64,000 bases of DNA from NCBI RefSeq assembly GCF_003991155.1, contig NZ_CP031293.1. One strand, 5' to 3'. The translations under genes and the position numbers were made by a program. Positions 11,689 to 13,483 of this stretch are shown one piece after another. How positions within the stretch are numbered: position 1 is the first letter of the stretch; each line of letters starts with the position of its first letter. The DNA comes from Escherichia coli. GTDB taxonomy: Bacteria > Pseudomonadota > Gammaproteobacteria > Enterobacterales > Enterobacteriaceae. Below the pieces are notes generated by a model. It was not told where the DNA came from, ran no database searches, and was given only the letters and a program-made list of their open reading frames with translations.

Positions 11689-12015
11689 TTACTCCTTAGA
11701 GCCACCAAACTTGTTACCGATTACTCTCATTGCAGCCCCACGAATAGCATCAACACCGATCAGCCCCACCCCACCACCAATGGCAACAGATAGTGATTTA
11801 GGCCATCCGACATACTCAAGAGCGGATGCAAAAGTCAGCGTCAGAGCGCCACAGAGTAGAATTTCGAGTGTTTTTCGCTTCCAGCCGCCACCACCGCCAA
11901 AATAGGCAATACGTAAACCAGCCATAACAATCGACATAATCACTGCGCCCAGCGGTGTGTCTCCACGCCACCAGCTCTGGACCAACTCCAGCCATGTATT
12001 TGGGTTATGAGGCAT
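11689..12015 (-). CDS. Holin (three predicted TM segments; not lambda S-like)
   Basis: 108 aa, three hydrophobic stretches and charged C-terminus, immediately upstream of endolysin; does not match recalled lambda S. Confidence 0.7.
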   Translation of the reverse strand: MPHNPNTWLELVQSWWRGDTPLGAVIMSIVMAGLRIAYFGGGGGWKRKTLEILLCGALTLTFASALEYVGWPKSLSVAIGGGVGLIGVDAIRGAAMRVIGNKFGGSKE

Positions 12016-12159: not shown

Positions 12160-12186
12160 AAACGACAAAACCCGCTCGATGGCGGG
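12160..12186 (-). terminator. Putative rho-independent terminator on minus strand (tR'-like, upstream of holin)
   Basis: Stem CCCGC (12171-12175) / GCGGG (12182-12186) with 6-nt loop, followed on the minus strand by TTTTGTCGTTT. Confidence 0.45.
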
Positions 12187-12306
12187 TTTAAGCTGTGTGG
12201 CGAAGTGAGCACACTTAACAGATTACGATATTTTTTGCGTACGCGTTAGTGTTTTGATAGAATTTTCAGCCACATAAAAATTCATTCTTATAATTCGGGA
12301 TATATA

Positions 12307-13170
12307 ATGGATATAACTTGTTTAGAATGTGGCAATGTTCTTGACGACCCAACTGTAGCTTGCGATAAATGCGGTGCCACGCCTCATGTTGTAGTGCTGG
12401 GCAAACAATCGTACTTTCCTATTGGTGCTGTAACAGCAAATCTTGAAAAAAATGATTCAAGAGCATTTGATTATCGATTAGGTGAAGTTTGGGATCTAAA
12501 AAATGAAGTCACATCTGAATTCATAACCAGAATTGAGAAAAAATTTAGCCGAAAAAACAAATTTCATAACTTCCTAGACTCAGATCACAACCCTTCATCC
12601 ATTCCTACGATCCTAAAAAAATACATTAATAAGAATAATGAATTCATTGATTTATCTAGAGCTATAATAGAGAAGCTTAAACATAATGCTAATAACGAAT
12701 CGAGAGTTGCCCAACTTCAGGGGGGGAGCGTTGTTTTCATCCACTATAAGTCTACCGAACCAGAGGATTTGGGGAAACTTCTAATCGTAATGGTTGATAA
12801 ACAAAGCGCCTATGACTTTGATTCGGATAAGTTGACCCCAACAAGATTAAATCCAATTAATACCGATGCCTTACGGCAGGCTGCGATGTTCGATTTAACT
12901 TTATTCGAAGCCAGTTATCCAGAAAACAAGGGTGACTCATATGTACATTTCTTGCAAGGTAAATCTAAAAGCGATTTTTTCAAAGACTCATTAGGTTGCC
13001 GACATGATTCGGACAATAAAAGAAGCATTCAGCAATTATTCAGTGCTATAGATATTTTTGCTAGTAAAAACTCACTCGGTCGTGTACTGCGTGATACTAT
13101 TGACAATGAAGTTAAATCCTTACTGGAAAAAAATCAAAAGATAAACACGGAAATAAGTCCGTTAAGATAG
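12307..13170 (+). CDS. AT-rich cargo gene 1: N-terminal zinc-ribbon protein of unknown function (likely frame-broken; see open frame 13128-13481)
   Basis: 287-aa ORF; N-terminus CLECG...CDKCG (C-x2-C / C-x2-C); visibly AT-rich; antisense to the phage late operon between Q and holin. Confidence 0.6.
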   Translation: MDITCLECGNVLDDPTVACDKCGATPHVVVLGKQSYFPIGAVTANLEKNDSRAFDYRLGEVWDLKNEVTSEFITRIEKKFSRKNKFHNFLDSDHNPSSIPTILKKYINKNNEFIDLSRAIIEKLKHNANNESRVAQLQGGSVVFIHYKSTEPEDLGKLLIVMVDKQSAYDFDSDKLTPTRLNPINTDALRQAAMFDLTLFEASYPENKGDSYVHFLQGKSKSDFFKDSLGCRHDSDNKRSIQQLFSAIDIFASKNSLGRVLRDTIDNEVKSLLEKNQKINTEISPLR

Positions 13171-13481
13171 AGGATATTTCAAAAATAATTGACTCATGCC
13201 TGACTGATTCACACAAATGTAAGGGAACGTTTGTCGATTTTGTTAATCTTAATGGTTTCCAGATTGACCCTCAATTTGAACCAACTCCTAAAGCAGCTGA
13301 AAGCGCGCTTACAATTGAAGTGGCAGATAACGACAATAATTTTAAGTTGAAAATAATGCGTGGAGCTATTGGAGACGAAAAGTCAAATAAGCCTGTAATT
13401 CTCACTGACAACAAATGCGAAATTGTGATAAAATTGAGTCAGGCAAATTATGATGAACTCAAAAGATATAGAGACAGCTAA
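13128..13481 (+). other. Start-less open frame (-1 relative to cargo gene 1) that probably encodes its C-terminal part
   Basis: Frame open from 13116 to stop TAA 13479-13481, about 115 protein-like codons, no long ATG-initiated ORF; begins at the A7 tract 13127-13133; ends 2 nt before the next gene's ATG. Confidence 0.5.
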
Positions 13482-13483
13482 TA

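Follow-up and report, generated by a model that had tools for sequence, protein, structure and literature searches.

The closest described counterpart of the locus analyzed here is DS-1, an anti-phage system entered as transcription unit D390 and marked as replicated in the supplement of the DefensePredictor study (DeWeirdt et al., Science 2026, PMC13092281). DS-1 comprises two proteins, WP_000355468.1 and WP_000150292.1, hereafter DS-1A and DS-1B. The first is YejK-like, with a YejK/NA37 domain that the supplement assigns by HHpred to residues 42-382, and the second is its partner of 404 aa; the pair was validated against phage Bas1 (PMC13092281). In the screen of the intact system, -log EOP was 7.6 for Bas1, 2.7 for Bas26, 1.7 for both Bas3 and T3, 1.0 for T5 and 0.9 for T7 (PMC13092281, Table S7). 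The only allele assayed for protection was the intact one, in which the gene for DS-1A carries a run of eight adenines (A8). The specifics of DS-1 are given in the supplement, the main text holding none, and those parts of the main text and supplements that a term search covered make no mention of a polymorphism in the A tract (PMC13092281).

Several other known systems bear on the locus. YejK/NdpA (Pfam NA37; PDB 9be2) shares the NA37 domain with DS-1A, but DS-1A differs from it by a non-equivalog score, an extra N-terminal zinc-ribbon-like motif, carriage on a prophage and the presence of the partner DS-1B. The phase-variable restriction-modification genes of Haemophilus, Neisseria and Campylobacter resemble DS-1A in having a mononucleotide run within a defence gene. 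The likeness to phase-variable contingency loci is that gain or loss of a single unit, on otherwise identical haplotypes, turns DS-1A off; in contrast to such loci, however, the DS-1A tract has only eight units and is absent from the Klebsiella orthologue. Among recoding sites, the -1 frameshift of dnaX (A AAA AAG, with an upstream Shine-Dalgarno-like element and a downstream hairpin) is comparable in its A-rich X XXY YYZ heptamer in the zero frame. The A AAA AAG heptamer of dnaX shifts, whereas AAU in the A site shifts poorly in E. coli compared with AAG; the DS-1A heptamer ends in U rather than G, has no stimulatory structure and belongs to a split layout that is not conserved. Finally, slippage by RNA polymerase matters at a run of about nine in many bacteria and of eight in some (Baranov et al. 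2005, PMC1088944). Here the likeness is a frameshift within an A run, where an extra A in the mRNA would restore the DS-1A reading frame; the run is, however, seven in the allele studied and eight in the wild type, both short of about nine, and the wild-type frame is not split. Since the run is only seven, transcriptional rescue, if any, should be weak.

The window, a stretch of 64,000 nt from E. coli (contig NZ_CP031293.1), holds a disrupted copy of DS-1. The same two genes are present in the same order as in the described system, but DS-1A is split by a 1-nt deletion and the copy is probably inactive. Both genes score above the cutoffs of the DS-1 families, and only DS-1B is intact, DS-1A being frameshifted. 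After repair of the frame, DS-1A matches NCBIfam NF053868 (DS1_1_antiphage) without interruption over positions 3-369 of 369 with 451 bits (cutoff 330), while the truncated 287-aa form, aligned over positions 3-277 of 369, still scores 349 bits. The second gene matches NF053869 (DS1_2_antiphage) with 375 bits (cutoff 315). Its product, DS-1B (13484..14698, plus strand, 404 aa), bears the accession of the cloned DS-1 protein, WP_000150292.1, since the window and strain LWY24 do not differ in this region. DS-1A residues 1-275 are identical to the cloned protein, and so are residues 276-391 once a single A is restored. Gene and system alike have been described before, and RefSeq already lists the truncated protein under an accession of its own.

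Structural and profile comparisons place DS-1A near YejK but outside its equivalog family. The YejK structure 9be2_A aligns to DS-1A residues 64-324, across the break, with E = 1.2e-9, and the YejK/NdpA equivalog NF001557 gives 81 bits against a cutoff of 341. By inference, DS-1A, as a YejK-like DNA-binding protein with an N-terminal zinc-ribbon-like motif, may recognize or bind DNA, with DS-1B as its partner or effector. A hydropathy scan of DS-1B returned one weak hydrophobic window (residues 291-309), too weak for a membrane-protein call. PADLOC 2.0 (2023) has no model for the system, which it predates, and matched neither DS-1 gene.

The truncated DS-1A frame (12307..13170, plus strand) opens with an ATG at 12307 and closes with a TAG at 13168-13170; its product, of 287 aa, has the same sequence as RefSeq WP_001588485.1. 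The product comprises an N-terminal CxxC...CxxC zinc-ribbon-like motif and the first two thirds or so of the YejK/NA37-like domain, and its last 12 residues (NQKINTEISPLR) are out of frame. The frame breaks at an A7 homopolymer (13127..13133, plus strand), the site of the 1-nt deletion. In the frame of the first gene the codons spanning the run are CTG GAA AAA AAT (13123-13134), and the functional A8 allele reads GAA AAA AAA TCA (E K K S). The seven bases A AAA AAT at 13128-13134 fit an X XXY YYZ heptamer in that frame. From 13116, directly downstream of a stop codon, the -1 frame stays open for 121 codons to a TAA at 13479-13481, and the ATG of DS-1B at 13484 follows after 2 nt. At some 0.078 stops per codon, a rough estimate from the local base composition, 121 codons would stay open by chance with a probability of about 5e-5. 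The -1 frame has no ATG, and its sole in-frame start candidate is a GTG at 13320. From KKSKDKHG onward it encodes, residue for residue, the C-terminus of the intact 391-aa protein, so that the stranded 3' part of DS-1A (13131..13481, plus strand) encodes the 116 C-terminal residues KSKDKHGNKSV...ELKRYRDS*. In all of this geometry, namely the end of the first gene, the A7 tract, the in-frame slippery heptamer, and the -1 frame open from 13116 to 13481 without a start of its own and stopping 2 nt before the second gene, the preliminary description was exact, and the repaired product that it put at about 390 aa has 391.

To establish the normal state of the tract, the locus was searched in 5,426 complete E. 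coli genomes, which returned 106 records, all at 99% identity or more. About 99 of the 106 carry A8 and a single 391-aa frame annotated as WP_000355468.1. An exact match to the 81-nt query around the run, and hence A7, was found in three records (LWY24, 2018-166 and STEC2018-553), and the 83-nt version of the query region, corresponding to A9, in four records from three strains; the other rows listed among the 106 are of 82 nt, that is A8. One A is the sole difference between the aligned A7 and A8 genes. The same holds over a much longer distance, since the A8 strain 2016C-3878 aligns to positions 1-49999 of the window with 0 mismatches and one gap, the missing A. The opposite change is also disruptive: the A9 product (P0003) has 279 aa and ends in ...LLEKKIKR*. 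The frame break is thus probably the unprogrammed loss of one nucleotide from the DS-1A coding sequence, turning A8 into A7, as in the homopolymer indel that the preliminary description had listed among its explanations.

Some of these records differ in other respects. LWY24, which shares A7, is separated from the window by an IS3 insertion and one SNP over about 48.7 kb aligned. The two sequences agree up to 18933, and the IS3-family element lies in the ybcK recombinase gene of LWY24 (window 18929-18933 against 19025-20253 in LWY24), the window being free of it. One copy of the DS-1 locus is found on NZ_CP146678.1 (E. coli MS 69-1; 64,057 bp), which is classed as a plasmid and may be a phage-plasmid or an unplaced prophage contig. 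In NZ_OZ547033.1 an IS1 lies inside DS-1A, and at an A8 locus in GCA_900449285.1 an extra T in DS-1B leaves a product of 388 aa, indicating that DS-1 is inactivated by other routes too.

Changes of the tract recur widely in E. coli. Among public contigs, 373 encode the A7 product, 97 the A9 product and at least 1000 the A8 product, and the corresponding numbers of gene-index blocks were 744, 246 and 10333. Roughly 7-9% of loci are therefore off (7/106 complete records, or 6.6%, and 990/11323 index blocks). In an alignment of the 2.9-kb cassette (MAFFT, fast settings) from 33 loci, picked by allele, plus the window, three SNP haplotypes each occurred with A7, A8 and A9, and further A7 and A9 alleles were seen on Stx-phage-like and other haplotypes. 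The alleles reside in three prophage backbones, a Nu1/gpA lambda-like type, a TerL/HNH type and a Stx-like type with a SASA esterase. To account for this sharing of haplotypes and backbones, one A must have been lost four or more times and gained five or more times independently, unless many recombinations took place. When reset to A8, all 22 off alleles examined (22/22) encode a 391-aa DS-1A with 0-1 amino-acid changes next to an intact 404-aa DS-1B. No homopolymer of eight or more is present in the 64-kb window, so the wild-type A8 would be the longest of the region. The pattern fits a mutational hot spot that has repeatedly been changed by one A in E. coli, with off alleles that are young; this youth could reflect either their slow removal or their reversion.

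A second, rarer slippage site may be the G7 run of DS-1A (12720..12726, plus strand), which is in frame in the window. On 8 contigs, the 265-aa product P0007 begins out of frame and picks up the DS-1A sequence from GGSVVF, the outcome expected if the run were G8. Neither the Salmonella nor the Klebsiella orthologue contains the G7 run. A further N-terminal disruption of DS-1A may be represented by P0004, a product of 230 aa from the internal Met162 found on 87 contigs.

Of the three explanations in the preliminary description, which had put the heptamer first, the homopolymer indel is supported, sequencing error is unlikely as a general cause, and programmed -1 frameshifting is rejected. Homopolymer undercalls are the usual residual error in long-read assemblies, and the strain might truly be A8, with one A lost from the consensus at 13127-13133. 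In favour of this, the missing A is the sole difference from 2016C-3878 in 50 kb; but with no further indel against this nearest relative, the 50 kb give no second hint of homopolymer error and the assembly cannot be called error-ridden. The same prophage was assembled independently from LWY24, and A7 is found there as well. The exact A7 product occurs on the 373 contigs mentioned above, among them many short ones and assemblies whose accessions date from the 2013 era (GCA_000457065.1, GCA_000459275.1), making error unlikely as a general explanation. Contigs of 20 kb or less do carry an excess of off products (74% of A7 and 82% of A9 against 37% of A8), and some of the counts may therefore reflect low-quality assemblies or mixed populations. 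On the other hand, contigs above 1 Mb make up similar shares of A7 (3.2%), A8 (3.0%) and A9 (2.4%; Fisher p = 0.65 and 0.85). The longest assemblies, presumably built from long reads, thus hold no excess of off alleles. Taken for this strain by itself, a lost base in the consensus is quite unlikely. Programmed -1 ribosomal frameshifting on A AAA AAT, by which the 287-aa and 391-aa isoforms would both be made by design, has in its favour that the heptamer lies in the frame of the first gene and that a -1 slip would yield exactly the wild-type protein. AAU is, however, a poor shifter in the A site of E. coli ribosomes. A-rich sites such as C AAA AAA can give 25-60% shifted product when over-expressed in E. 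coli (PMC1851650). The comparison of orthologues nevertheless argues strongly against a programmed event, since neither the heptamer nor the two-frame layout is conserved. More than 90% of E. coli loci have one uninterrupted frame, as do the Salmonella orthologue (95.8% nt identity, A8, intact) and the Klebsiella orthologue, which occupies the same Q-to-holin slot of a lambdoid prophage. The latter (85% nt identity, intact) has GAACGAAAG at this site, reading GAA CGA AAG TCA, and contains neither run nor heptamer. Single-frame orthologues of different tract length are what the preliminary description had named as the mark of a simple indel or error. The downstream pseudoknot or hairpin that it proposed to look for did not emerge either: the minimum free energy of the 80 nt downstream is -8.8 kcal/mol against -7.97 +/- 2.46 in shuffled sequences (z = -0.34), the only element in these 80 nt being a 5-bp hairpin 13 nt after the heptamer, and the site has no Rfam match. 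The opposite break, A9 (+1), is also found in E. coli, and a -1 device could not serve it; both the NF053868 profile and the YejK structure 9be2_A align straight across the break. Because the orthologues are intact, with A8 or tract-free, and no significant structure follows the heptamer, programmed -1 frameshifting is rejected on these sequence comparisons and appears highly improbable.

Whereas these alternatives concern the origin of the frame break, a third takes the deletion as real and asks whether the A8 tract, and perhaps the G7 run as well, might have been selected as a reversible on/off switch for a prophage defence that is costly or self-toxic. This reading is raised by the repeated independent changes of one A in both directions on identical cassette haplotypes, seen at least three times and in three prophage backbones, and by the lack of secondary decay in the off alleles, none of the 22 examined having suffered further damage, which fits young or reversible states. 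The share of off loci, at about 7-9%, and the standing of the wild-type A8 as the sole homopolymer of eight or more in the region point the same way. Against it, the tract is not conserved, being A8 in E. coli and Salmonella but missing from the intact Klebsiella orthologue, and runs of A are expected from the composition of a cassette with 35% G+C alone. A tract of eight is short for bacterial phase variation, and mismatch-repair-proficient E. coli has few such loci. Many young off alleles would be produced equally well by a high rate of forward mutation under weak purifying selection, and the 33 aligned loci, sampled by allele, carry no switching rates. To our knowledge no contingency locus in E. 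coli serves a defence system of this class, and nothing relevant emerged from the literature searched for prophage defence genes that vary in phase through homopolymers. We consider a selected switch unlikely and the tract polymorphism a weak candidate for phase variation, the non-programmed deletion at a mutable A8 run remaining the preferred reading of the frame break.

The most likely mechanism of this deletion would be strand slippage at A8 during DNA replication. DS-1A would then be cut at residue 275 of 391, within the YejK-homologous region, losing 116 residues and gaining the 12 foreign ones. Translational coupling of DS-1A and DS-1B is likely in the intact allele, because the stop of the one and the start of the other lie 2 nt apart and no good Shine-Dalgarno sequence was seen upstream of DS-1B. 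With the A7 allele, ribosomes would stop 313 nt before DS-1B, so that any such coupling would be lost and DS-1B expression should fall. DS-1 would thus be off or strongly weakened in this strain, although the 287-aa product still passes the NCBIfam cutoff (349 against 330 bits), which speaks against a loss of function. RNA polymerase adding a single A, or ribosomes slipping by -1 on A AAA AAT, would restore the wild-type LEKKSKD, and some full-length DS-1A may leak from the A7 allele in this way; such a leak would be low and adventitious, not programmed. In the current RefSeq/PGAP annotation the fragment WP_001588485.1 is an ordinary 'nucleoid-associated protein' rather than a pseudogene, and 13171-13483 is unannotated. 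In A9 genomes the stranded 3' part is annotated as a separate hypothetical protein of 125-127 aa.

The DS-1 cassette is carried by a lambdoid, DLP12-like E. coli prophage adjoining tRNA-Arg, and its 35% G+C compares with 50% for the window. It is located between the Q antiterminator (14678-15034) and the holin (11689-12015), on the strand opposite to both, and DS-1B overlaps the 3' end of Q convergently by 21 nt. Immediately upstream of the holin, at 12168-12189, the minus strand carries a strong terminator-like hairpin with a T run after it. The prophage may thus have its late promoter and terminator between DS-1A and the holin (region 12190-12306), in which case the DS-1 cassette would separate Q from the promoter that Q targets. 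A scan for promoter-like sites gave 12 against 10.4 in shuffled sequences, which is no excess, and no cassette promoter is named on this basis. The same prophage encodes a BstA abortive-infection protein (16720-17649, minus strand; PADLOC BstA, 401.8 bits) and hence carries at least two defence cargoes, of which DS-1 is one, and broken.

For annotation, WP_001588485.1 together with the following unannotated 313 nt is best read as a disrupted DS-1A, neither a short isoform nor a recoding site, and strains with the A7 allele should not be scored as DS-1-positive unless a functional test supports it. The DS-1 tract is a modest candidate for slippage-based on/off variation of an E. coli prophage defence gene; should this improbable reading hold, E. 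coli lysogens would turn a prophage-encoded defence off and on by slippage at A8, with G7 as a second site. The occurrence of A7, A8 and A9 on identical backgrounds offers a natural comparison for whether DS-1 is costly to its host. Broader interest lies in one feature alone, a single A8 run at which a validated prophage defence system is repeatedly polymorphic between on and off states.
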